From the sequence record NC_028927.1: a DNA stretch of 64,000 nucleotides. One strand, written 5' to 3'. Shown here piece by piece: positions 1,160 to 62,583 of this stretch. The notes under the pieces are model-generated. The model ran no database searches and had not been told where the DNA came from. It saw nothing but the letters and a program-made list of their open reading frames with translations. Position 1 is the first letter of the stretch, and every line of letters begins with the position of its first letter. Position numbers and translations under genes: made by a program. Source of the DNA: Escherichia phage slur02.

Positions 1160-1795
1160 TCACAGTTCAGATGCTACGGTGATTACTGCTTCAATGTTTT
1201 CTGCCGAGCGTTTAATGTCAAGATACACATTACCGTTTTTAGCGATTTTACATGACATTCCGATATCAGTAAATTTCTGAATATGATGTTCCATCATTTT
1301 GTATCCAAAAATTCGCATATTTCCATTGTTGTTAATTTCAAAATTGCGAATTCCGTGAGTGCGTTTTTCTAAAATAGCAAGATAGTTACTGCGGTAAGTT
1401 TCAACCTTTTTAAGAACAAATCCATTTTCATCTAAAAGTTTTAACATGAAGTCTTTATCTTCTTCCATATCGGAAGTAATCTCACGAGCTTTACGAGTCG
1501 CCCGTTTTTTCAGTAGTTCAGGAGCATTTTCCTGCGCATATAAAGTTGCTGCATTTGAAATAATATCCTGAGCTTCACCAGTAATGATTAATCCATCACC
1601 AGATTTCTCCACCAGGCCTTTTTTAATCAATACCCCAATATTACTATTAACTACTGCGTTACCTAAATCTGGATGCACCTCACGAACTTCTGCAGCTGTA
1701 ATGAAATCTTTCTTAGCAATAGTAATTAAAATCGCAGCGGTTTTTTCATTCAGAACATCGTTAGAAGCTTTGATGATGTAAGTTACTTTAGACAT
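1160..1795 (-). CDS. motA: MotA, activator of middle-mode transcription
   Basis: 211 aa, N-terminus MSKVTYIIKASNDVLNEK matches T4 MotA as recalled; GGAG SD upstream; early promoter upstream. Confidence 0.9.
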   Translation of the reverse strand: MSKVTYIIKASNDVLNEKTAAILITIAKKDFITAAEVREVHPDLGNAVVNSNIGVLIKKGLVEKSGDGLIITGEAQDIISNAATLYAQENAPELLKKRATRKAREITSDMEEDKDFMLKLLDENGFVLKKVETYRSNYLAILEKRTHGIRNFEINNNGNMRIFGYKMMEHHIQKFTDIGMSCKIAKNGNVYLDIKRSAENIEAVITVASEL

Positions 1796-4835: not shown

Positions 4836-4949
4836 TCACATAAATCCAAAGTAAACGTTTAATACATCAATCATTAAAACGATTGGGAATATACTCAAAA
4901 CTATTAGTATTATAACTACATTCCATATAGCTTTAATAATCTTTTTCAT
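4836..4949 (-). CDS. small membrane peptide (37 aa)
   Basis: MKKIIKAIWNVVIILIVLSIFPIVLMIDVLNVYFGFM; the longer track ORF contains an early promoter, so start moved to ATG after GGAGGAACAG. Confidence 0.35.
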   Translation of the reverse strand: MKKIIKAIWNVVIILIVLSIFPIVLMIDVLNVYFGFM

Positions 4950-5192
4950 TTTCTGTTCCTCCGTAGTTGATAGGGTAATAATACCACGGAAGAACAGTCC
5001 TGTAAACAACTTTTTTAAAAATATTCGTAATAAATGTGAATACCAACTACTACCGCTGAAACCTGTGCAACCCACCACGCACAAGCAATAAGTACAGAAT
5101 TCATAATTTTCATAATAACCTCATCACAAAAGTAAATGTTAAACAAATTACTGGAATACTAATTAACCAAACAAAACACCACCATAGTGAAC

Positions 5193-5465
5193 TCATAGCT
5201 CAATCTCAGCGATTTTCATTTCATTACTATTAATAGCCGCTTTAAGACTATCTGAAAGAATTACATTCCAGTGGTCATTCATATGACCATTAATTAAGCG
5301 TGTAATTTCTTCTGGAGTTGAAAAATAAGGCGTATCAGACTCCCAATGCGATAATCCTAAGCGAGTATAAATCATACCTTCATCATCGCTAGAATATTCA
5401 ACTGACACAAACTCATCAGTTATTTTATGTTTAGCGTAATAAAATTTAAATTTCATTTTACTCAA
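5193..5465 (-). CDS. hypothetical protein (90 aa)
   Basis: Track ORF; ATGA overlap with upstream ORF. Confidence 0.5.
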   Translation of the reverse strand: MSKMKFKFYYAKHKITDEFVSVEYSSDDEGMIYTRLGLSHWESDTPYFSTPEEITRLINGHMNDHWNVILSDSLKAAINSNEMKIAEIEL

Positions 5466-5668
5466 TAATCCGCTAAAAGATCGACGATTGCATCACGAAG
5501 ACACTTATTCGCAATACGTTTAAGAGCAATTTCAGTTTCTGGAGCATTTTGAATAATCATCGAATTCAACTCAGCCTCAGCAAACTGAAGTTCTTTAACT
5601 AGTTCAGCTTTATATTTCCCTTGCCCTTTCTTAGCCTTTGCCCGTTTTAATTCAGCTGTAGTAAACAT
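5462..5668 (-). CDS. hypothetical protein (68 aa)
   Basis: Track ORF trimmed to ATG after conserved leader TTGGAGAATAAAATG. Confidence 0.5.
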   Translation of the reverse strand: MFTTAELKRAKAKKGQGKYKAELVKELQFAEAELNSMIIQNAPETEIALKRIANKCLRDAIVDLLADY

Positions 5669-5695
5669 TTTATTCTCCAAATCCGTATCAGTTGA

Positions 5696-5738
5696 TAGTT
5701 GTATAGTACCACAGTCCTTGTGGTATGTAAACTGTTTT
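5696..5738 (-). promoter_or_regulatory. early promoter with conserved leader
   Basis: GTTTAC, about 17 nt, TACTAT, followed by leader ending TTGGAGAATAAAATG. Confidence 0.55.
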
Positions 5739-5750
5739 ATGAAATTTTTT

Positions 5751-6308
5751 TTAAATAGAAAGATACCATCCGTTGTAGTTGCTTTTTCTTACAACCTTAC
5801 GAAGGTCTTCTCTGTCACCGATGAACTTCGGAGTGTACTGGATGACACCTGGATGAATTTCTTTAGTGTTGAATATAATTATACAGTCCGCGACTTGATG
5901 ATTTAGAATGGGCCCTAGATTTATTCCAGAACCGTATGGATACTCTCCGCTGCATCCTGTTGTTACAGAAATCCAACGTGAGTCAGTTTGGTGTGTCTTA
6001 ACTTCTACACGAAGCCCGCAGTATCTTGGATGCGCCAATACATCCCATGCGTATGTATACGGGTCATTAACATCTTCTTGACCTTTATTAACATATCCGC
6101 TTAGCCAATCTGCCACAAAAAACTCTGCGTACACAGCGATACGACATCTTTCGATAACTTCTGCTTTATCCTGGTTCGGGTTTTGTTTTAAAGAGTATCT
6201 TGCTGTATCAGCAATTTTGACCTTCATTTCACTAGTCAAGTCACTGTTCGATAGGGTAAATGTCGGAATCTGAAATAGTCTCTGTAAACCCGGATTCGTT
6301 TTCTGCAT
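5751..6308 (-). CDS. denB: DenB, endonuclease IV
   Basis: 185 aa as in T4 DenB; synteny next to rIIB. Confidence 0.8.
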   Translation of the reverse strand: MQKTNPGLQRLFQIPTFTLSNSDLTSEMKVKIADTARYSLKQNPNQDKAEVIERCRIAVYAEFFVADWLSGYVNKGQEDVNDPYTYAWDVLAHPRYCGLRVEVKTHQTDSRWISVTTGCSGEYPYGSGINLGPILNHQVADCIIIFNTKEIHPGVIQYTPKFIGDREDLRKVVRKSNYNGWYLSI

Positions 6309-6587: not shown

Positions 6588-6605
6588 AAAGGGCCGAAGC
6601 CCTTT
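6588..6605 (-). terminator. UUCG-tetraloop hairpin
   Basis: AAAGGGC-UUCG-GCCCUUU then U-rich run. Confidence 0.5.
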
Positions 6606-10191: not shown

Positions 10192-10234
10192 CCAATTAAT
10201 TATACCACATCCTTGTGGTAAAGTAAACTACTGG
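10192..10234 (-). promoter_or_regulatory. early promoter upstream of rIIA.1/rIIA
   Basis: GTTTAC, 17 nt, TATAAT with TG upstream; palindromic spacer CCACAAGGATGTGG. Confidence 0.6.
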
Positions 10235-12048
10235 CTCATCCATTCTTTACGAAGGTCAGCATTATCTCCCATGAGCATTTCAAAAAGCTCTTTCCAGTTC
10301 TCAGGAAGTTTAACAACATCATATACTGGATTTTGAATCATCTCACGATATTCAGATTTTTCCAAAGAGCCAAGTCCTTTAATATAACGGATGCTATGTT
10401 TAGGTAGAGCATCTTTGGCACTCTCATATTCAGCGACTGTATAAAACCATTCTTGTTTTTTACCGACCTGAGCGATGATTACCGGAGTTTTGACAAAGCG
10501 AATTCGTCCTTGCTCAAACAATTCTGGCCAATTACTAAAAAACCCGAGCAGAGAAGGATAAATGCTTCCTAGACCATCATGGTCAGCATCAGTCATAATA
10601 GCAATATTGCGATAATTCAAGTTTTCAGCTTTTTCACCAAGAACTAGACCAGTGATTGCGCAAATATCAAATAGTTCTTTGTTTTTAAGCATATCAGCAT
10701 ATGACATACCCCAACTGTTGAGAACTTTACCACGCAATGGATAACCACCATGAAGTTCTTTATCACGAACATCAATAAGATATCCGATAGCCGAATCACC
10801 CTCAGTCAGGAAAAGAGTAGTGTCAGCATCTTTACCACAAAGATTCGCTTTGATATGTTTATGAACTTTAGCTTTAGAAGCCTTTTTAGCTGCTTTAGTT
10901 TCAGCTGCTTTTTCTGCTGCCAATTTACGGGCCAAGGCAGCTTCAATAATTGGCATCAAAATAGCTTCATTATTTAGAATAGCGCGTGAAATCTTTTTAG
11001 CATCAAGCTGAATATGACTACGAATTTCGCCAAATGGAGAAGTCAAACGCTCTTTAGTTTGAGAATCAAATCGCATGTTTTTCATATCACGAACAAACAT
11101 AACGATAGTCAAACATTCTTTAACACGTGCTTTAGTTACATCAATTTTGAATTTACGTTTGATTTGTGGAATAAGGTCTTCACAAATATCATCCATAACG
11201 CAGTCAATGTGATGGCCACCATTCTTAGTGTGAATGTTATTCACATAAGTTAATTGACGAAATCCATCCGGTGAACGACCAACCGCAATAGAACAATTTT
11301 CTTGTTCTTGAACAATAGCATGTTCATCATACTGTCGTGCATATTTCTTAAAATTGCCCTGAACCTTTTTACCATTAAAGGTAAATTGAATATCAGGATA
11401 AACAACAGCAAGTGTCTGGAGACGATCTAGTGTAATGTCAAGATAAACTTGGGACAGCTCATTAGTTTCAAATGACATAAAATCAGGAATGAAAGTAACA
11501 CGAGTTCCTTTCCATTTTCCAGGAATAGTTTCCCAGGATTTATTTTCCATGCCATTTGAACAACGAACTACAATATTATTTTGACCATCGCCAGTTTCAC
11601 CGACAAACATCACAGAAAAAATGTTAGTTAAACTAGAACCAACACCATTCATACCACCGGTGACGCGTTCTTTATCATCACCAAAGTTACCACCTGCTTT
11701 TGGAATAGTCCAAGCAGCAACTGGGCCAGGAATTTCTTCACCGGTAGGTGTTTTAACCATCGCTTGTGGAATACCGCGACCGTTATCTTCAACTGTTACC
11801 TGATTATTTTTAATGGTAACATTAATTTTATTTGCGAATTTAAACTTAGTACGAATACCTTCATCTACTGAGTTATCGATAATTTCATCAATAAGCTTAA
11901 CAAGACCAGGTACATACTGAACACTTTCCCATTTACCAAACAGAAAGCGCTCATGCATTTCATTAGCTGAAGAGCCAATGTACATGCCGCTACGCTTTTT
12001 GATATGTTCAATATCGCTCAGAATTTTAATTTCATTCTTAATCATCAC
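10228..12048 (-). CDS. 39: DNA topoisomerase II large subunit (GyrB-like), uninterrupted
   Basis: 606 aa; GHKL ATPase motif EIIDNSVDE and Toprim LTEGDSA; one continuous ORF with no gene 60 split. Confidence 0.9.
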   Translation of the reverse strand: MMIKNEIKILSDIEHIKKRSGMYIGSSANEMHERFLFGKWESVQYVPGLVKLIDEIIDNSVDEGIRTKFKFANKINVTIKNNQVTVEDNGRGIPQAMVKTPTGEEIPGPVAAWTIPKAGGNFGDDKERVTGGMNGVGSSLTNIFSVMFVGETGDGQNNIVVRCSNGMENKSWETIPGKWKGTRVTFIPDFMSFETNELSQVYLDITLDRLQTLAVVYPDIQFTFNGKKVQGNFKKYARQYDEHAIVQEQENCSIAVGRSPDGFRQLTYVNNIHTKNGGHHIDCVMDDICEDLIPQIKRKFKIDVTKARVKECLTIVMFVRDMKNMRFDSQTKERLTSPFGEIRSHIQLDAKKISRAILNNEAILMPIIEAALARKLAAEKAAETKAAKKASKAKVHKHIKANLCGKDADTTLFLTEGDSAIGYLIDVRDKELHGGYPLRGKVLNSWGMSYADMLKNKELFDICAITGLVLGEKAENLNYRNIAIMTDADHDGLGSIYPSLLGFFSNWPELFEQGRIRFVKTPVIIAQVGKKQEWFYTVAEYESAKDALPKHSIRYIKGLGSLEKSEYREMIQNPVYDVVKLPENWKELFEMLMGDNADLRKEWMSQ

Positions 12049-12072
12049 TTATCCTCGTTTGGTTTCGGGAAT

Positions 12073-12098
12073 ATTATACTCCAGTAATCATAAAGCTA
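12073..12098 (-). promoter_or_regulatory. MotA-dependent middle promoter candidate for gene 39
   Basis: MotA-box-like AGCTTTA, 12-nt spacer, TATAAT; immediately after UUCG hairpin. Confidence 0.5.
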
Positions 12099-12115
12099 AA
12101 GGCCCGAAGGCCTTT
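12098..12115 (-). terminator. UUCG-tetraloop terminator downstream of lipoprotein gene
   Basis: AGGCC-UUCG-GGCCU then UUU. Confidence 0.55.
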
Positions 12116-12384
12116 TATTTAAAACGGATAGTCGAATCCTTGAAGAATAGACCAGAACATACTGTTCCTTCTACTTTCTGCCCAGTAGGTCCAACAGCAC
12201 GAAATCCAGTGTGTTGGAAATCATTTTCAGAGCAACCGAACCAGTTATATCCAGTGATTTCAATATTAGTAAAACCGCTTGAAGATAAAACTTTGGTTGC
12301 ATTATCAGCATCAGTACATCCTACTAAAGATACTGCTAATACTAATGCTGCAATAGAACGATTAATATATTTCATAATTTTCAC
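12115..12384 (-). CDS. small lipoprotein (89 aa)
   Basis: Signal peptide with lipobox (LVGC); terminator hairpin downstream. Confidence 0.6.
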   Translation of the reverse strand: MKIMKYINRSIAALVLAVSLVGCTDADNATKVLSSSGFTNIEITGYNWFGCSENDFQHTGFRAVGPTGQKVEGTVCSGLFFKDSTIRFK

Positions 12385-22555: not shown

Positions 22556-22592
22556 TTTTATTATACCATACTCATTTTGGAAAGTAAACCGG
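22556..22592 (-). promoter_or_regulatory. early promoter just downstream of soc terminator
   Basis: GTTTAC, 17 nt, TATAAT. Confidence 0.55.
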
Positions 22593-22603
22593 TAAAATGA
22601 AAA

Positions 22604-22626
22604 AAGGACTCCCGAAGGAGTCCTTG
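22604..22626 (-). terminator. soc terminator
   Basis: AAGGACUCC-UUCG-GGAGUCCUU then UUUUUCAUUUU, immediately after soc stop. Confidence 0.75.
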
Positions 22627-25115: not shown

Positions 25116-25280
25116 TTACTCTTCTTTTTCTTTAGATTCCTCTTTTTTCTTTTTAGGAATCTGTTCAGGGCCTTTATTTACTACAGCGCCTGACGTTGTT
25201 CCAATAGAGATATTTTCAGGATTACCACCTGAATCTCCAGCGACCATATCTTCTTTAATAAATTCTTTATATGTTTTCAT
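25116..25280 (-). CDS. small protein (54 aa), 61.1 position
   Basis: Hand-translated MKTYKEFIKEDMVAGDSGG...; TAA-T-ATG coupling. Confidence 0.5.
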   Translation of the reverse strand: MKTYKEFIKEDMVAGDSGGNPENISIGTTSGAVVNKGPEQIPKKKKEESKEKEE

Positions 25281-25325
25281 ATTAACCTCTATTCATAAAA
25301 GCATTAAAAATTTGGTCATCAATAG
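25278..25325 (-). repeat. 48-bp direct repeat copy 1 (gene 3' end plus stop/start junction)
   Basis: Near-identical to 25636..25683 (1 mismatch). Confidence 0.8.
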
Positions 25326-25638
25326 ATGGAATAGCAACCTTTTCGGCATCATTTAGCAAATCATTAATTTCATCAGATAGCATAACACATGTGCCTTTAT
25401 TTCCTGTAATTGTTACTGCACAATTACGAACGTTTTCTTTATCAAATTTTAGGTTAATATTTTCGTAGTGAAAATCCTTTAATGCCGAATATATCTTTAA
25501 AATGAAATTGTCTTTTACTACAATAAACCCAACTTCACTATTAAAACGTGGTTCATGGAAACTGTAATAAACCTTTTCATCTATGAAATCGTATGAAATT
25601 TTTTCCATTTTTAAATATGAAAATTCAGAACTATACAT
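25282..25638 (-). CDS. hypothetical protein (118 aa)
   Basis: Track ORF; C-terminal 14 aa shared with 25640..26266. Confidence 0.5.
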   Translation of the reverse strand: MYSSEFSYLKMEKISYDFIDEKVYYSFHEPRFNSEVGFIVVKDNFILKIYSALKDFHYENINLKFDKENVRNCAVTITGNKGTCVMLSDEINDLLNDAEKVAIPSIDDQIFNAFMNRG

Positions 25639-25683
25639 ATTAATCTCTATTCATAAAAGCATTAAAAATTTGGTCATCAATAG
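25636..25683 (-). repeat. 48-bp direct repeat copy 2
   Basis: Near-identical to 25278..25325. Confidence 0.8.
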
Positions 25684-26266
25684 AAACATTTACTTTAGAC
25701 TGTTTTTCAGATGGCAATTCATATCCACATATTACAATTTTATGATCAATATCAAAATACACAGAAGCAATATGATTAATGATATTTTCAGTGAAGTCTA
25801 AATCGACATCAATATCTTTTTGACCAAATCCCAGAGGATAAATAATGCGAGTAATTCGATTATCTTTAACAAAGATTCCACCGACATACTCTGTACTGCG
25901 TTTAAAGTCTACACGCCGACGAAATGAAAAATATTCAGGCTCTTTATGAGCTCGGCTCATAGGACACAACGAATAACTAGAATAAGAGATGTCAAATCCT
26001 ACGCCTTCGATATGAGCCAAAGTGTCATGATTAAACCAATTATAATCGTACGCCAAATCCATTAGATTATAATATGTAAAAGGCACCGGATTAACATCAT
26101 TAGTCACAAGCATGTAATTAGCAACTGCTATAATTTCATTGTTTTTAACGAATACAAACCGTGATTGATGCGAATGACCTGGACCCGCGTTTTCACGATT
26201 AATGATATAACACTGGGCACCTTTATATTTGTATGTATCTTTGCACTTGTGCATTTGATAGAGCAT
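25640..26266 (-). CDS. hypothetical protein (208 aa)
   Basis: Track ORF; shares C-terminal SIDDQIFNAFMNR with neighbour. Confidence 0.5.
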   Translation of the reverse strand: MLYQMHKCKDTYKYKGAQCYIINRENAGPGHSHQSRFVFVKNNEIIAVANYMLVTNDVNPVPFTYYNLMDLAYDYNWFNHDTLAHIEGVGFDISYSSYSLCPMSRAHKEPEYFSFRRRVDFKRSTEYVGGIFVKDNRITRIIYPLGFGQKDIDVDLDFTENIINHIASVYFDIDHKIVICGYELPSEKQSKVNVSIDDQIFNAFMNRD

Positions 26267-32535: not shown

Positions 32536-32772
32536 TCAAATGCAAGTAGTAATTACTCCAGTAGTGCTTATGCAGGTATTACCCATTTGCACACCTAAAG
32601 ATCCATTGGTATTCACATGAAGATTATCATCAATTTTAACTGATATTTTACCATTAGTGTGAATAACGGTGCTAGATTCAATCACAGGTTGAGTATCATT
32701 TTCAACACTAACAAATGGAACTGCTGCTAATGCAACTAAACAAACTGCTAAGCATCCCATAACAATTTTCAT
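32536..32772 (-). CDS. secreted small protein (78 aa)
   Basis: Track ORF trimmed to ATG after TTGGAGAATAAAATG leader; N-terminal signal peptide. Confidence 0.5.
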   Translation of the reverse strand: MKIVMGCLAVCLVALAAVPFVSVENDTQPVIESSTVIHTNGKISVKIDDNLHVNTNGSLGVQMGNTCISTTGVITTCI

Positions 32773-32802
32773 TTTATTCTCCAAATCTGTATTAGTTGAT
32801 AG

Positions 32803-32840
32803 TTGTATAGTACCATGGAAGAACAGTCTTGTAAACAGTT
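32803..32840 (-). promoter_or_regulatory. early promoter with conserved leader
   Basis: Same module as at 1830, 5696, 57505, 58944 and 62514. Confidence 0.55.
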
Positions 32841-32922
32841 TTGTGAAATTTTTTTAGGGAATCCAAAGGGTCCAGAATCATCTGTTTTTCATAAGTATAG
32901 ATTTATATTACTTGTATGAAAA

Positions 32923-36097: not shown

Positions 36098-36661
36098 TTA
36101 CCATTCCAATGCTAGTTTTTTGAGTTGTTTCTGTTCTTTTACGTTCTTAGTCACTTCTTTCAAAAAATCATCCGTGACTAAACCTTTTAGTTCTTTTAAT
36201 ACTAAAGGAAGTTTTCCATTTTTAGTAAGAATTGATTTATAGTTAATTGCATCATTTGTATTAACTTGATACCGTTTAGCAAGTAACTTAATAATCAATA
36301 CTTCGGTGGAATCTTCAACCAGTTTTGCCCATTTACCATATCTTTTACCACGAGGAACTGCAGCCATTAGATAATTAAAATGAGCTTCATCACTTAAGCC
36401 TGATCCAATTAAATTCATAGCATATACAGCTGGCATGCACTCTGGAAATTGTGATAATGCATTTTCAACCATGAATTTTGAATAATCTTTTTGAGCAATA
36501 GAGCATTTAGTTTTATTATTAATAGCTCCAATTATTTCAAAAAACTCATTTTCAGCTTTTTCTTTAAAAGAATCAGCAGCGGATTGGACAGCTGTCCAAT
36601 CTTTTGAATACCAAGCAATTTGATGCTCGTTTAATTGAATATCATCTTCAAATAAGCTCAT
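36098..36661 (-). CDS. 62: gp62 clamp-loader small subunit
   Basis: Track ORF trimmed to [10 protein letters not shown] start (187 aa); TGA-T-ATG junction with gene 44. Confidence 0.85.
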
Positions 36662-41000: not shown

Positions 41001-41187
41001 TATCTAAAATGTTGAAGTTAAAAGATACAGCCCAGTCAGTGCAGACTGTAACCTTTTTAATACAATTATCTTCAACCTCTAACGGTTCAAACCAATATTC
41101 AATAATTTCTTTATGCCCAATATCATCTTTTACTTCGCATTCAAAATGCTGACTCATCATAACATTTTTAAATTCATCAAAAGTCAT
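40924..41187 (-). CDS. hypothetical protein (87 aa)
   Basis: Track ORF; ATGA coupling to gene 47. Confidence 0.45.
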   Translation of the reverse strand: MTFDEFKNVMMSQHFECEVKDDIGHKEIIEYWFEPLEVEDNCIKKVTVCTDWAVSFNFNILDNDTPKSLQDMAVSCIKDAYCEVFDI

Positions 41188-42203
41188 TGTGTTGCCTCTA
41201 CATATAACTGATTTGCATATTGAATAAGTGCTTCACGGTCAGAATCAGTGATGTCTGGAATTGCATTAATGTATTCTTCCATCAACGTCTGAAGAGATTG
41301 AACTTCAACTTCTTCACTGTCATCTGACTCGACAGAGTTATCAATTTTTGACACAACTCGTAATGAATGCACAACTTTTTCTAGTTCAGATTCGAACTTC
41401 GTTAGATTTTTGTCTACTTCAGTTACTATAACACGTACTGATAGATTTGTAAAATCTTTATAGTCAATTTTTCCTTTAAATGGATAATGAATTCTACGAT
41501 GCCAGGTAGTGTTGTTTGGAATAAATTCCATTCGTTCTGTTTCTGTATCAAACATCCAGAACCCACGAGGGTCATTCTCGTCACCTGCGGTTAGTGTCCA
41601 TGGTGTCCCAATATATCTGACGTTAGCAGCCTCAGAGATAGTATGGAAGTGACCAGACCACACTTCTTTATAAGTCTTAAGGAAATCAGGTTCAAGACCA
41701 TGAGATTTCATTCCTTTATAAAAATAAAATCCGTTCAGTTCCCAGTGACCAACGCAAAAAGAAGCAGATGAAGTTTTGATGTGTTCAAGAATTTCACCAG
41801 TATTTTCTTCACACATCCAAGGAATTAAATCAATTAAACATCCGTCAAAATCTACTGTAGTAGGCTTATCATACACTTTAACATTAGGATATTTAGCCAA
41901 AAGCTCAGTAGAAGCATTTGGAGTTAAAGTATTTTTAAAGTGCATATCATGGTTTCCTACAACAGTATGCAGTGTAATACCAGCATCATCAAGCATTTGA
42001 ACTATTTCACGAGCGAACTCCATAGTTTTATGCGTGATTGCTTTTCGCACATCAAAAATATCGCCGTATTGAATCCATGTAGTAATTCCATTTTTCTTAG
42101 AATATTCTATTGCTTGTTTAATTCCATCCAACTGAATGGATTGAATCCACTCATCATCGGCTTTAACACCTAAATGCCAATCACCTAAATTTAAAATTTT
42201 CAT
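41184..42203 (-). CDS. 47: gp47 recombination nuclease subunit (Mre11/SbcD-like)
   Basis: 339 aa; phosphoesterase motifs GDWHLG and GNHD. Confidence 0.9.
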   Translation of the reverse strand: MKILNLGDWHLGVKADDEWIQSIQLDGIKQAIEYSKKNGITTWIQYGDIFDVRKAITHKTMEFAREIVQMLDDAGITLHTVVGNHDMHFKNTLTPNASTELLAKYPNVKVYDKPTTVDFDGCLIDLIPWMCEENTGEILEHIKTSSASFCVGHWELNGFYFYKGMKSHGLEPDFLKTYKEVWSGHFHTISEAANVRYIGTPWTLTAGDENDPRGFWMFDTETERMEFIPNNTTWHRRIHYPFKGKIDYKDFTNLSVRVIVTEVDKNLTKFESELEKVVHSLRVVSKIDNSVESDDSEEVEVQSLQTLMEEYINAIPDITDSDREALIQYANQLYVEATQ

Positions 42204-42338
42204 ATATCAAGAACCGTCATTGAAATGCAAAATAAAATTATTGAAATAAATCCATCTGGAGTGCTAAAGAACCCAATCCAACATGCTCTAGTGAATAGAT
42301 AAAATGCAAGAAAAAGTATCACATATCCAAGAAATATC

Positions 42339-42365
42339 ATTATATCAAACTCCGTATAAAGCTAA
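42339..42365 (-). promoter_or_regulatory. MotA-dependent middle promoter candidate upstream of gene 47
   Basis: AGCTTTA, 12 nt, TATAAT directly after a-gt terminator hairpin; near-identical in layout to 12073..12115. Confidence 0.45.
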
Positions 42366-42381
42366 AGGGCCGAAGCCCTTT
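42364..42381 (-). terminator. terminator downstream of a-gt
   Basis: AAAGGGC-UUCG-GCCCUUU overlapping the a-gt stop codon. Confidence 0.55.
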
Positions 42382-43582
42382 ATTTTGTAATAATGTCAAA
42401 CTGTTCTTTAAAGCAGAAGCTTGAATCTTGATGCTGATACAAAAATTCATACGCTTTTTCTCGCTCACGGTCATAAAGAGCTCGGTCAGATGACAGTTCT
42501 TTAATACGTTCAAACGTTGATTCCATATCATTTTCATCAAACCAAACGATACCGCTATCATGCGAGGTCAAAGGAGTATTATCAACACGGAATTTTAAAT
42601 TTTCGCCAGTAGATTTCCAAAATACCGGAATTGTTCCACATGCACCAAGCTCGAGGTGAGTATATTCTAAAGAGCGCTGTAAATATTTTTTGTCCAACTT
42701 ACTCAACTGATAACCAAATCCGGATTTACTCATACGTTCAAGCATTTCGCTATTTACATAACGGTCAAGAATTTGCGTTGGCAAATTAGGAGCAATTTTA
42801 ATTTGGTCTACTTGATGAAGACGATAATACTCGTATGGAATTCCTTTTTCTTTAATAGGAATGAACGCTGGAGAACGTTCCAGACCTTCCATAATAGTAC
42901 TTAGTCCTGCAGGTTTAAGATGTTTTTCGTGAAAATCAAACATCTGATAAAAACCTTTCCATGTAGTCGTACGACCAATCCAGCGGTTGATATTCATATT
43001 AATTTCAGAAACATCTTTCCAGTAGGTTGACCGAACCTTCGCAATATCCATAGGAGGCTGAAAGTTATATACTGTCGGCGCTTCTTCAATATCATCAAAC
43101 AAAGAAACTGTTTCAGGATACCATTCTTTCATCAGAACTTTATTAAAATCACCATTATCAGAATGGCTAAAAATAACATCAGCTCGACGAACAGTTTCTT
43201 CTAATCCCAAATTTCGACGCAAAGAAAGAGAAGAATGGTCATGCTGATAAACTACAACACGAACAGAAGGTTTAATGTTATCAATAATTTTTTTATAGTT
43301 ATTAATAGTGTCTTCTTCAACCGAAGTAGCAGGAACTGAATTGATAATTAGAATATCACAATCATTTACCAGCTTAAGTGTTTTATCGTATTCTTTTGAC
43401 AATAAAACCGGAATTGAAAATGATTTATAATCATGTGCACAGTTACGAGTAAATGATTTATCTTTAGCATAAACCAAAGTTACTTCATGACCATTTTTAA
43501 TAAACCAATCACGTTGCTCAAGAGAAAATTTAGTTACACCACAACCTTCAAGACCTCGAGCCATAAAAATACATACTTTCAT
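42380..43582 (-). CDS. agt: alpha-glucosyltransferase
   Basis: 400 aa as in T4 a-gt; N-terminus CIFMARGLEGCGVTKFSLEQRDWF. Confidence 0.9.
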   Translation of the reverse strand: MKVCIFMARGLEGCGVTKFSLEQRDWFIKNGHEVTLVYAKDKSFTRNCAHDYKSFSIPVLLSKEYDKTLKLVNDCDILIINSVPATSVEEDTINNYKKIIDNIKPSVRVVVYQHDHSSLSLRRNLGLEETVRRADVIFSHSDNGDFNKVLMKEWYPETVSLFDDIEEAPTVYNFQPPMDIAKVRSTYWKDVSEINMNINRWIGRTTTWKGFYQMFDFHEKHLKPAGLSTIMEGLERSPAFIPIKEKGIPYEYYRLHQVDQIKIAPNLPTQILDRYVNSEMLERMSKSGFGYQLSKLDKKYLQRSLEYTHLELGACGTIPVFWKSTGENLKFRVDNTPLTSHDSGIVWFDENDMESTFERIKELSSDRALYDREREKAYEFLYQHQDSSFCFKEQFDIITK

Positions 43583-43825
43583 TTAATATCCTCTTTGTTT
43601 TGGTTTATTTTACCAAAATTTTATAAAGCAATATAGGAGCCGAAGCTCCTATCCACATAATACGCCATACAGAGGCTCATTAGAACTTTTAAATTTTATG
43701 CGCTTATATTTTATAGTTCCTTCTGCTTTAGCTTTATCATGAGACTCTTTAAAGAGTCTCATCATTTCCTCTTTAGAGGAACGAATTTTATTATAATCTA
43801 TTTCAGAAGTCTGGGTGTTCATCTT

Positions 43826-56948: not shown

Positions 56949-57476
56949 TTATGCGAGTACCGTCTTTAACCGTTCTTCAAACTTCCGAAGAGTATTCTGG
57001 CGTTCAGCTCTTTGCTTTTTGTAAGTTTCAATACGCTCTGAAATGAGAGTGTATCGTTCATTTACTGATTCTTTCATAAAATCAGGAATTTCACGAGAAG
57101 CTTTAATCTCGTCAAATTTATCAATAACAGCTTGCTCTTCAGCAATTAAGTTATCATACATCAAAATATCTTTCTTGATGAACTCAATATCTTCTTGAGT
57201 TACACGAGATAATTTAGATGCTTTATCCTTTTTGTACTGTTCGTTAGTATCACGAGACCAGTGTAATGTACGATTTTTATTCGTATTTTTGTAAATTTCT
57301 ACAATACCAATCTCATCAATAATAACGATCCAATTCCAACGAGATTTGTAAATTTGCCCTCCATCAACTGTGATTTCACCTCCGATTGAGATGTCATTAA
57401 AGAACTTGCTTTGTGCTTCTGATTTAAATTTACCATCATTGTAATTTACCAGGTTGAAAATATCTTTAGCGTTCAT
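56949..57476 (-). CDS. hypothetical protein (175 aa)
   Basis: Track ORF; early promoter module upstream. Confidence 0.5.
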   Translation of the reverse strand: MNAKDIFNLVNYNDGKFKSEAQSKFFNDISIGGEITVDGGQIYKSRWNWIVIIDEIGIVEIYKNTNKNRTLHWSRDTNEQYKKDKASKLSRVTQEDIEFIKKDILMYDNLIAEEQAVIDKFDEIKASREIPDFMKESVNERYTLISERIETYKKQRAERQNTLRKFEERLKTVLA

Positions 57477-57504
57477 TTTCTGTTCCTCCGTAGTTGATAG
57501 TTGT

Positions 57505-57538
57505 ATAGTACCACAGAGGAACAGTCTTGTAAACCACT
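57505..57538 (-). promoter_or_regulatory. early promoter with conserved leader
   Basis: Conserved module GTTTAC...TACTATACAACTATCAACTAC. Confidence 0.55.
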
Positions 57539-57851
57539 AAAAGAAACTTCTTTCACAATTTTTTCCACTGAACCACGCGCTCACTGCTTTCTTAGTCTCA
57601 GGAGCAGTGTTATCCATAAACCATTCAAAGGCAGCCTTTTTATGATTCTGGAGGGCTTCTCGGGCTTTAATCTGCTCACGGTCTATTAACACTAACATAT
57701 GAGCCTTTCTTGTCACCAAGGGCTTCTTATGATTTTTTGAATACTCCCAGTCATTTGTCCATCGCATTGTCGTTGCGAATTGAAATACAGCTTCTTTAAT
57801 TTTAGTTTCGTAAATTTCACGAGCCTTTGAGTATAACATCATTACCTCCAT
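57537..57851 (-). CDS. hypothetical protein (104 aa)
   Basis: Track ORF. Confidence 0.45.
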   Translation of the reverse strand: MEVMMLYSKAREIYETKIKEAVFQFATTMRWTNDWEYSKNHKKPLVTRKAHMLVLIDREQIKAREALQNHKKAAFEWFMDNTAPETKKAVSAWFSGKNCERSFF

Positions 57852-57940: not shown

Positions 57941-58909
57941 TTATTTCAGAAGAGTAACCTCAGCAATTTCTTCCCAACCGTTTTTGTCGGTCATAATAAA
58001 GTCAGCAAGATAAAGAGCAGTACGCAGTGAAACATTGCGTAAACGATTAACATTGACTTTCATCCATGATAATGCTTTATAAGTTTCTTCATCAGAAAGA
58101 CCGCGCTTTTGCATCATGTCGGTTGAAAGAATAACATCTTCAACCCTGACCATAATTTCTTCATTAGTGTGAACACCCAAATCCAAATAAACTGAGCGGG
58201 ACACTAATGCTTGTAAATGTGGAGCAAGTTTAGTACCACGGTCTAATTCGCGGTCAATGTCAACGTTTGTGATAAAAACAATCGTTCCTTTAAATTCAAA
58301 CTCACGCTCAATGCCTTTTTCTTCTAAGTAAGAAGATGCAGTGCTCCAGCAGACTTTACGGGTCTCTCCAGTGTCCAGAGCAGCTTTCAGAAGATTAAGA
58401 ATGTCCATATCAGAGAAAACATCCACATCATCAATCAAAAGGACAGAATTCTCTTCACGATTATTCCAAAGCTGTTCATAAAGACCGATACCGGAGATTT
58501 TACCGTTAATGCTTTTATATTCAATGTATCCAATATCATTTGCTTTATTTAAAGCTTTATCTAAAGAATACGTTTTACCAATACCTGCCGCACCAGAGAT
58601 AATTAATGAACGAATGTTTCCGTTAATAATACCATTCGTCATCATTCCCATAACATTAAATCTTTTATTAATGCGGGTTTTCATATCTTCATACGATTCT
58701 TTAACTTCTTCAACTTTTACACCATCATATGAAATGTCTGATTTGTAAACCCAAACACCGCGACGTTTACCGTCAATTTCAACAAAAACTTTACCATCTC
58801 CTTGCGCATCTACCGGAGCATTATCTGGGAACCATTCGCCTAAGAGCTCAAAAGTTCCAGAGATTTCTTTACCGAAGTAGATACCCTTATTGATAGTTAC
58901 AGTTTTCAT
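57941..58909 (-). CDS. predicted AAA+-like P-loop ATPase (about 322 aa)
   Basis: Walker A GAAGIGKT, Walker B LLIDDVD, sensor-1-like FITN; start set to ATG after TGGAGAATAAA; own early promoter. Confidence 0.6.
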   Translation of the reverse strand: MKTVTINKGIYFGKEISGTFELLGEWFPDNAPVDAQGDGKVFVEIDGKRRGVWVYKSDISYDGVKVEEVKESYEDMKTRINKRFNVMGMMTNGIINGNIRSLIISGAAGIGKTYSLDKALNKANDIGYIEYKSINGKISGIGLYEQLWNNREENSVLLIDDVDVFSDMDILNLLKAALDTGETRKVCWSTASSYLEEKGIEREFEFKGTIVFITNVDIDRELDRGTKLAPHLQALVSRSVYLDLGVHTNEEIMVRVEDVILSTDMMQKRGLSDEETYKALSWMKVNVNRLRNVSLRTALYLADFIMTDKNGWEEIAEVTLLK

Positions 58910-58943
58910 TTTATTCTCCAAATCCGTATCAGTTGATAGTTGT

Positions 58944-58976
58944 ATAGTACCATAAAGCTTTATGCTTGTAAACAAC
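58944..58976 (-). promoter_or_regulatory. early promoter upstream of AAA+-like gene
   Basis: Conserved module followed by TTGGAGAATAAAATG. Confidence 0.55.
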
Positions 58977-59003
58977 TTTGTGAAAAATTTTTGAAATAAA
59001 AAA

Positions 59004-59021
59004 AGGGAGCCCGAAGGCTCC
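59004..59021 (-). terminator. terminator downstream of nucleotidyltransferase gene
   Basis: GGGAGCC-UUCG-GGCUCCC then UUUUUUUAUUU. Confidence 0.75.
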
Positions 59022-59024
59022 CTA

Positions 59025-61572: not shown

Positions 61573-61701
61573 TACATACTCCTCTGAATCATATCAATAA
61601 TGTTGTTTACCAGATTATAAGTAAACATTGGGTAATTATATTGAATCATCACATACACAACAAACAAAACTTTCATTCTCTTCTCCTTGGCAGTTGACAA
61701 G

Positions 61702-61738
61702 ATTACTATACCATAACCTTGCCAACTTGTAAACCATT
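61702..61738 (-). promoter_or_regulatory. early promoter upstream of paralog pair, membrane protein and NTase genes
   Basis: GTTTAC, 17 nt, TATAGT. Confidence 0.5.
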
Positions 61739-61910
61739 AAATGACGTTTTCAATAAAATTCTGAAGCTTTGTATGAGCATCAACCATGATTTTCATTTCT
61801 TCTTTGGCGAAAGCTATACCTCTTTCCCGAGAAGAACACTCATAGTCAGAAACTGCATTAGCATATTCTTCAATTAACTTCATTAAAAACATCTGCTTTT
61901 CAGTTTTCAT
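61737..61910 (-). CDS. small protein (57 aa)
   Basis: Hand-translated MKTEKQMFLMKLIEEYANAVSDYECSS...; AGGTGG SD. Confidence 0.3.
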   Translation of the reverse strand: MKTEKQMFLMKLIEEYANAVSDYECSSRERGIAFAKEEMKIMVDAHTKLQNFIENVI

Positions 61911-62300: not shown

Positions 62301-62488
62301 TATTCCACCACATATGAAAGAGAGAATATTGCACACGCCATGTGAGTTGCAACTTCATCACACATATTATAACGTTTCTTAAGAAATTCTACAAGTTCTT
62401 CACTAGTAACTTCATCCATGTCGACGAAAAAATCACCATTAATGATGACGTAGATATTTCCTTCTTGATTAAGTGCTTCAATTTTCAT
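62300..62488 (-). CDS. hypothetical protein (62 aa)
   Basis: Track ORF trimmed to ATG after AAAGAGGAG SD. Confidence 0.45.
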
Positions 62489-62513
62489 GATGTTCTCCTC
62501 TTTATCCGATAGT

Positions 62514-62548
62514 TGTATAGTACCACAGCTCAAACGGAAAGTAAACCG
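62514..62548 (-). promoter_or_regulatory. early promoter with conserved leader
   Basis: GTTTAC, 17 nt, TACTAT; directly after UUCG terminator. Confidence 0.55.
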
Positions 62549-62562
62549 GTAAAATGAAAAAA

Positions 62563-62578
62563 GTCTCCCGAAGGAGAC
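62563..62578 (-). terminator. terminator downstream of rI.-1-position gene
   Basis: GUCUCC-UUCG-GGAGAC then UUUUUUCAUUUU. Confidence 0.7.
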
Positions 62579-62583
62579 TAATG

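Follow-up and report, generated by a model that had tools for sequence, protein, structure and literature searches.

Two stem-loop and MotA-type middle promoter modules upstream of gene 39 and of genes 47.1 and 47 in Escherichia phage slur02

Background

Composite motifs that join a terminator to a promoter have been described in the T4-like phages under the name PeSL (Arbiol et al. 2010, PMC2839356; Comeau, Arbiol & Krisch 2014, PMC4122927). A variant of these with a TGCTT Mot box and a -10 box was named PmSL in the Vibrio phage nt-1 (PMC4122927). In both kinds of motif a stem-loop is immediately upstream of a promoter, followed by a Shine-Dalgarno sequence and the start of the next gene, and the arrangement is repeated within a genome. 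The two elements described here share this organization. The published motifs sit at boundaries of variable gene content, and the gene content beside the gene 47 module also varies among relatives; a difference is that the present elements flank core genes rather than hyperplastic regions. The PeSLs described for the phage pair PST and T4 carry early promoters (PMC4122927), while the elements reported here have MotA boxes and a stem that abuts the box without a linker.

T4 makes its middle RNA in two ways, by extending early transcripts and by starting at middle promoters (PMC2988021). The middle-promoter consensus is (a/t)(a/t)(a/t)TGCTTtA, centred near -30 and separated by 12 +/- 1 bp from TAtaaT (PMC2988021). 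There are 58 identified T4 middle promoters in Table 1 of Hinton 2010 (PMC2988021), including the MotA-dependent P39, with its start at position 5349, and P47, with its start at 36576, which are credited there to Guild et al. 1988 and Hsu & Karam 1990.

It was in T4 mRNA that UUCG tetraloops were first identified (Tuerk et al. 1988, as told in Hall 2015, PMC4371310). The T4 C(UUCG)G hairpins of that work resemble the present ones in their loop, their C-G closure, their intercistronic location and their exceptional stability; the work is about the stability of the hairpins, not their juxtaposition with a MotA box (PMC4371310).

The window analysed here is a stretch of 64,000 nucleotides from Escherichia phage slur02 (NC_028927.1), identified by its sequence similarities as part of a Tequatrovirus genome. 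Two sites within it are compared below with the T4 promoters and with the composite motifs.

Results and discussion

Layout and location of the two elements

The sequence-only reading of the window had proposed a duplicated element, made up of a UUCG hairpin, AGCTTTA, 12 nt and TATAAT, at 12073-12115 (site 1) and 42339-42381 (site 2). Both copies are present at these positions. A degenerate pattern search for the whole layout returned two matches, which are sites 1 and 2, with an expectation of 0.00 from 100 dinucleotide-preserving shuffles. Read directly on the minus strand, site 1 (12115..12073) is AAAGGCCTTCGGGCCTTTAGCTTTA-TGATTACTGGAG-TATAAT, in which the hairpin part AAAGGCCTTCGGGCCTTT is followed by AGCTTTA and the spacer TGATTACTGGAG. 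Site 2 (minus strand, 42381..42339) is AAAGGGCTTCGGCCCTTTAGCTTTA-TACGGAGTTTGA-TATAAT, with the hairpin part AAAGGGCTTCGGCCCTTT, then AGCTTTA and the spacer TACGGAGTTTGA. The minus-strand pattern common to the two is AAAGG(S)CTTCGG(S)CCTTT-AGCTTTA-12 nt-TATAAT, and the 12-nt spacer and a perfect TATAAT are found in both copies. The copies had been called nearly identical in layout. The repeat finder placed sites 1 and 2 in one repeat family (D11) with 87% identity over 31 nt, and a single compensatory swap separates the stems (GGCC/GGCC in one, GGGC/GCCC in the other). Measured from the stop codon before it to the start of transcription, each module is approximately 50 nt long, and its hairpin and promoter parts have three base pairs in common.

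At site 1, the C(UUCG)G hairpin is at 12098..12115 on the minus strand (AAAGGCC-UUCG-GGCCUUU; RNA fold of -10.7 kcal/mol), and its stem covaries in the orthologues. The first A of the hairpin is the final base of the TAA stop codon of a 39.1-like ORF (12115..12384). The MotA box, TTT-AGCTTTA, is at 12091..12100 on the minus strand and is orthologous to that of T4 P39; its TTT doubles as the 3' arm of the hairpin, and its fourth position is A where the consensus has T. The -10 element TATAAT (12073..12078, minus strand) is 12 nt downstream of the MotA box. The probable P39 start, a G at 12066 on the minus strand, corresponds by homology to T4 position 5349. From there a 21-nt leader with a GAGGA Shine-Dalgarno sequence would lead to the ATG at 12045. 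This is the start of the gene for the topoisomerase II large subunit (10228..12045, minus strand; 605 aa), which was recognised from the ORF list, the Pfam domains DNA_gyraseB, HATPase_c and TOPRIM_C, and the RB14 annotation '60plus39'. The large subunit is a single fused ORF, as it is in RB14, without the T4 gene 39/60 split, the mobA remnant or the gene 60 bypass region.

At site 2, the C(UUCG)G hairpin is at 42363..42382 on the minus strand (UAAAGGGC-UUCG-GCCCUUUA; -11.3 kcal/mol), again with covariation in the orthologues. The base of its stem is formed by the TAA stop codon (42382..42380) of a-gt, the upstream gene for DNA alpha-glucosyltransferase (42380..43582, minus strand; Pfam AGT, E = 1.4e-236). 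The MotA box TTT-AGCTTTA (42357..42366, minus strand), orthologous to that of T4 P47, overlaps the 3' arm of the hairpin. The last two bases of the -10 element TATAAT (42339..42344, minus strand), together with the next G, are the ATG (42340..42338) of 47.1. The likely P47 start, placed at 42332 on the minus strand by homology with T4 position 36576, is downstream of this ATG. According to the T4 annotation 47.1 is a 46-aa predicted membrane protein (42200..42340, minus strand), and homologues are downstream of the module in relatives. Its stop codon overlaps the ATG of gene 47 in the sequence ATGA. Gene 47 (41184..42203, minus strand) encodes a recombination endonuclease subunit with a metallophosphoesterase domain. 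The neighbours named in the sequence-only reading were thus right for site 1, upstream of gene 39, and for the position of site 2 after a-gt, but site 2 is not directly before gene 47 because ORF 47.1 intervenes.

Both site regions are 100% identical to those of Escherichia phage slur04, and site 1 is also identical in Shigella phage CM8. Other Tequatrovirus genomes, T4 included, are approximately 98% identical over both regions.

Identity of the promoters

Both elements are present in the T4 genome sequence (AF158101.6), site 1 with one difference in the spacer and site 2 with none. The orthologous sequences have the same MotA box, 12-nt spacer, TATAAT and start sites, and at site 2 the identity extends over 201 nt. 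The last bases of the two T4 TATAAT boxes are 5356 and 36583, and the published P39 and P47 starts follow at a distance of exactly 7 nt. The differences are that slur02 is another Tequatrovirus isolate and that it has the fused 60plus39 gene. At both sites the box TTTAGCTTTA agrees with the consensus at 9 of 10 positions, the one mismatch being A for T just before GCTT. Such deviations of the MotA box are reported to be tolerated by MotA (PMC2988021), and T4 promoters carrying the AGCTTTA-type box are listed as active. A sigma-70 consensus scan called no -35/-10 promoter using the -10 box of either site. In OL960581, the GenBank record of a close relative, a 'T4 middle promoter' is annotated overlapping a 'rho-independent terminator' at site 1.

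The activator that reads MotA boxes is encoded in the window by motA (1160..1795, minus strand; Pfam MotA_activ, E = 5e-61, and MotCF, E = 9e-67). Its partner gene asiA should be outside the window, judging from T4 synteny. The proposal that these are MotA middle promoters has therefore fared well, as the sites correspond to mapped T4 starts 7 nt after the -10 boxes and motA is in the window. Sites 1 and 2 are almost certainly the orthologues of the MotA-dependent promoters P39 and P47 of T4, to judge by their sequence. In T4 itself the promoter reading is already established experimentally, and by homology the slur02 transcripts would start at 12066 and 42332.

Conservation and strand of the hairpin

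Both stems have 7-8 bp with four G-C pairs, and in the RNA sense a C-G pair closes the UUCG loop. Loci encoding relatives of gp39 and gp47 were fetched from IMG/VR and their upstream regions were read. Compared with named phages, some of these contigs are exact matches to JS98 and VR20, and others are close to IME523 or myPSH1140. The architecture is kept at both the gene 39 and the gene 47/47.1 loci in relatives with 70-79% protein identity. The order in these is a stop codon, a GC-rich stem-loop, a T-rich linker of 0-5 nt, a TGCTTT box, 12 nt (11 in one case) and a -10 box. The stems vary in sequence and are always complementary, with GGCC, GGGC, GGGCC, GGACC, GGAGC, GGAGCC, AGAGCC and GGAAGC all being found. 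The loop is UUCG in most, with UACG, UAAC, UUAG, UUUG and CUAGU in the others.

Covariation was counted on 18-mers anchored on the loop, from 13 distinct elements, because a full-length MAFFT alignment put the stems of unequal length out of register. Among these 13, 97.8% of cells are paired and six of the seven pairs have changed on both sides, although the count leans towards structure because the alignment is anchored on the hairpins themselves. These values were reached by none of 500 shuffles, and they collapse in slid registers. The closing C-G pair is invariant in 13/13 aligned elements.

In the complete T4 genome all GC-rich UUCG hairpins (18/18) have the UUCG on the locally transcribed strand, including two that are within plus-strand late regions. 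This bias points to a function at the level of RNA rather than of DNA. The hairpin is very likely to be a selected RNA-level element. A scan of the whole window with Rfam at gathering thresholds found no Rfam family.

Apparent need for read-through into 47.1

At site 2 the ATG of 47.1 overlaps the P47 -10 box (TATAATG) and is upstream of the probable P47 start at 42332, and the GGAG of the spacer (42358..42355) has been placed as the 47.1 Shine-Dalgarno sequence. As the mapped T4 P47 start is downstream of the 47.1 ATG, P47 transcripts cannot encode full-length 47.1. Transcripts that have read through the hairpin thus appear to be needed for 47.1. For gene 47, which overlaps the stop codon of 47.1, no Shine-Dalgarno sequence is obvious, so that it may depend on translational coupling. 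A separate leader precedes 47.1 downstream of the promoter in the JS98- and VR20-like relatives.

Possible termination at the hairpins

On the minus strand the stem is followed at both sites by the tract TTTAGCTTTAT, the tail being written UUUAGCUUUAU. This U-tract is broken, with only UUU, because the stem runs straight into the MotA box. There are four T in the 8 nt after the full stem, which is below the criterion of >=5/8, with a borderline 5/8 if the A-U pairs are counted as tail. A consensus terminator scan called neither site on the minus strand; site 2 was called on the plus strand only. The approximate d'Aubenton-Carafa score, which is a relative measure only as the 1990 formula was used with modern ViennaRNA energies, is approximately -13 at both sites, against +23 to +57 for the clear terminators at 62562, 22604 and 59004, which have long T-runs and early promoters behind them. 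The intergenic hairpin of genes 45/44 scores similarly to sites 1 and 2, at -8. Like sites 1 and 2, canonical Rho-independent terminators in the window (59004-59023 and 22604-22625, minus strand) combine a stop codon with a following GC-rich stem-loop on the transcribed strand. They differ in having 6-7 consecutive U after the stem and then early promoters, where sites 1 and 2 have only UUU.

In MK373781 the site 2 hairpin is annotated as a 'putative transcriptional terminator, -10.80'. Termination is possibly stronger than the slur02 features imply, since tools of the TransTermHP/WebGeSTer type have called terminators in related records (OL960581, MK373781). No 3'-end or terminator mapping of T4 at these sites was found in the accessible literature; P39 and P47 are absent from the DksA RNA-seq paper, and the 2026 alpha-gt/beta-gt paper covers only promoters upstream of a-gt. 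The earlier suggestion that the hairpin stops early transcripts stands as far as a stable hairpin is concerned, but the broken U-tract, the negative scan and the low d-score lend little support to termination. We infer the degree of termination at the hairpins, and in slur02 the balance tips somewhat towards a leaky rather than an efficient terminator.

Behind the site 2 inverted repeat the plus strand reads TTTTGTAATA (42363-42392), and the scan calls the repeat terminator-like in this orientation. It could stop antisense transcription entering from the gene 47 side.

Hairpins and promoters found apart or in other arrangements

MotA-type promoters without a hairpin are found at the gene 39 locus of phages close to myPSH1140 (loci L026-L029) and also at L030, L037 and L064/65. 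Conversely, there are hairpins without a promoter at 6588 and 46004 in the window and at L066. A third module, the homologue of T4 PmobB (P-alpha-gt.1), is at 43607..43652 on the minus strand and reads AUAGGAGC-UUCG-GCUCCUAU, then ATTGCTTTA, 11 nt and TAAAAT. T4 carries an insertion between the PmobB module and a-gt, namely the homing endonuclease gene mobB; since slur02 is without mobB, its PmobB homologue is directly upstream of a-gt. A hairpin is not a general feature of middle promoters, and this idea was rejected, as one that abuts the box is present in only P39, P47 and PmobB among the 58 T4 promoters. Two other T4 middle promoters have a hairpin in a different place, over the box position in P43 and approximately 40 nt upstream in P24.3.

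The slur02 homologue of T4 P43 (35708-35725, minus strand) consists of a CUUCGG hairpin, AAGGGGCTTCGGCCCCTT, followed by 8 nt and TATAAT. Near the position of a MotA box the sole GCTT belongs to the loop of the hairpin (G-GCTT-CGG) and is 17 nt away from the -10 box. This geometry of hairpin and box is atypical for a listed MotA-dependent promoter.

Interpretation of the modules

Each site is best read as a compact intercistronic module of the T4 type that would combine an RNA hairpin with a MotA/AsiA-dependent middle promoter, a reading to which we give a probability of about 0.8. In the early message from the 39.1-like ORF or a-gt upstream, the C(UUCG)G hairpin would form the 3' end and would act as RNA. 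Rather than terminating efficiently, it would most likely be both a leaky attenuator of read-through and a stable 3' cap for the upstream message. Such a role in stabilising the 3' end of the mRNA is probable. The MotA/AsiA-dependent promoter would then start transcription anew for gene 47 or the gene of the topoisomerase large subunit. In its MotA box, the A/T-rich 5' part is the UUU arm of the hairpin. The downstream genes would in this way be served twice, by read-through of early transcripts and by MotA-dependent initiation, which agrees with the two origins published for T4 middle RNA.

It is conceivable instead that the hairpins are efficient Rho-independent terminators closing the early unit, with genes 39 and 47 expressed essentially only from the MotA promoters. 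The GC-rich stem, the unusually stable UUCG loop and the folding energies of -10.7 and -11.3 kcal/mol right after a stop codon would fit such a role, as would the predictor calls in related records and the better tail of those relatives that have a T-rich linker, with 5-6 T in the first 8 nt. This is nevertheless unlikely given the tail UUUAGCUUUAU, the lack of a minus-strand scan call and d-scores of approximately -13 against +23 to +57. In addition, the start codon of 47.1 is present only on transcripts that read through, and with the stop codon overlapping the stem a terminating ribosome would be expected to hinder folding. The same stem can be taken as an inverted repeat acting in the DNA, as a cruciform, a protein binding site or a part of promoter recognition, and it does overlap the upstream edge of the MotA box, while in T4 P43 the GCTT is inside the hairpin loop. 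With a palindrome acting as DNA there would be no need for the asymmetric UUCG to be on the transcribed strand in 18/18 T4 hairpins, and promoters persist without the hairpin and hairpins without the promoter; a role in DNA is accordingly very improbable.

The likeness of the two copies raises another possibility, that they are a mobile or recombining cassette of the PmSL type kept alike by gene conversion, with their significance being mainly as recombination points for module shuffling and less as regulators. PeSL and PmSL motifs have been described as recombination substrates in T4-like phages (PMC4122927), and the window has many longer repeated early-promoter cassettes. The two copies share approximately 33 nt including the derived zero-linker CCTTTAGCTTTAT junction. 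Other lineages lack this junction at both loci, and within one of their genomes the elements of gene 39 and gene 47 differ from each other. Relatives vary in the genes on either side of the gene 47 module, and in T4 the third module has mobB as its neighbour. Yet both modules keep fixed positions next to conserved core genes in all of the lineages examined; nearly all of the sequence that the copies share is functional motif, and no recombination junction was seen at either site. We regard this as a rather poor prospect, a little below that of the efficient terminator. A time-dependent switch has a smaller chance still. It starts from the zero-linker overlap of the hairpin 3' arm with the MotA box, which may be more than compaction. 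In that scheme the hairpin would be leaky before MotA builds up and let delayed-early transcripts through, 47.1 included, and a MotA roadblock would afterwards enhance termination while the site initiates. Gene conversion, as proposed for PmSL cassettes, may keep the copies identical. Were a polymerase to pause or terminate 7-9 nt past the stem, it would sit exactly on the MotA box and cover the whole promoter, and bound MotA would stand where the elongating polymerase must cross the U-tract.

Relation to the known motifs

Sites 1 and 2 fit the definition of the PmSL. Site 2 is unusual for a PmSL, having the 47.1 Shine-Dalgarno sequence and ATG inside the promoter. The layout of a stem-loop and middle promoter is real, under selection and already described in T4-like phages, and the feature as a whole is therefore known. 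The conservation of this architecture with covariation in several T4-like lineages and at both loci is a comparative confirmation of the PmSL idea in the T-even group. For slur02 the value is mainly one of annotation, fixing in its genome the orthologues of P39 and P47, each with an upstream RNA hairpin.

What is modestly new is the derived zero-linker CCTTTAGCTTTAT junction common to the two Tequatrovirus copies, with AGCTTTA rather than TGCTTTA; it was not seen at either locus in other lineages. This pattern is compatible with concerted evolution or with functional overlap and proves neither. If it is true that the overlap couples termination to MotA binding, one short segment of DNA would be both the tail of a terminator and the site of an activator.

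Other repeats and motifs in the window

CUUCGG hairpins with long T-runs, followed by T4 early-promoter sequence (GTTTAC ... TATA), are found on the minus strand at 22560-22625 and 62516-62579, and also at 59004-59023. These composites of hairpin and early promoter are PeSL-like, and two of them are nearly identical. The direct-repeat families D1-D4 have 4-8 copies of 67-96 nt with 60-87% identity, at 1800-1895, 4945-5015, 5666-5761, 32770-32865, 57472-57542, 58907-59002, 61672-61742 and 62484-62554. On the minus strand they read as T4 early promoters whose conservation extends both upstream and downstream, in up to eight copies of 71-96 nt.

The sequence GGAG or GGGA recurs directly upstream of the -10 box, as CTGGAGTATAAT in P39 (12079-12083) and as TTGGAGTATAAT in P43. 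It is also found at L048-L053, L058, L061 and L067, and as CTGGAGTATAGAATATAAT in the gene 47 module of the myPSH1140-like contigs. Compared with the RegB context GGAGRAYARAA (consensus from PMC3014915), the site 1 spacer matches at 5 of the 7 positions after GGAG, and the match of site 2 is poor. A separate direct repeat of 49 nt (D18) is present at 25278-25326 and 25636-25684, with 98% identity and a spacing of 358 nt.
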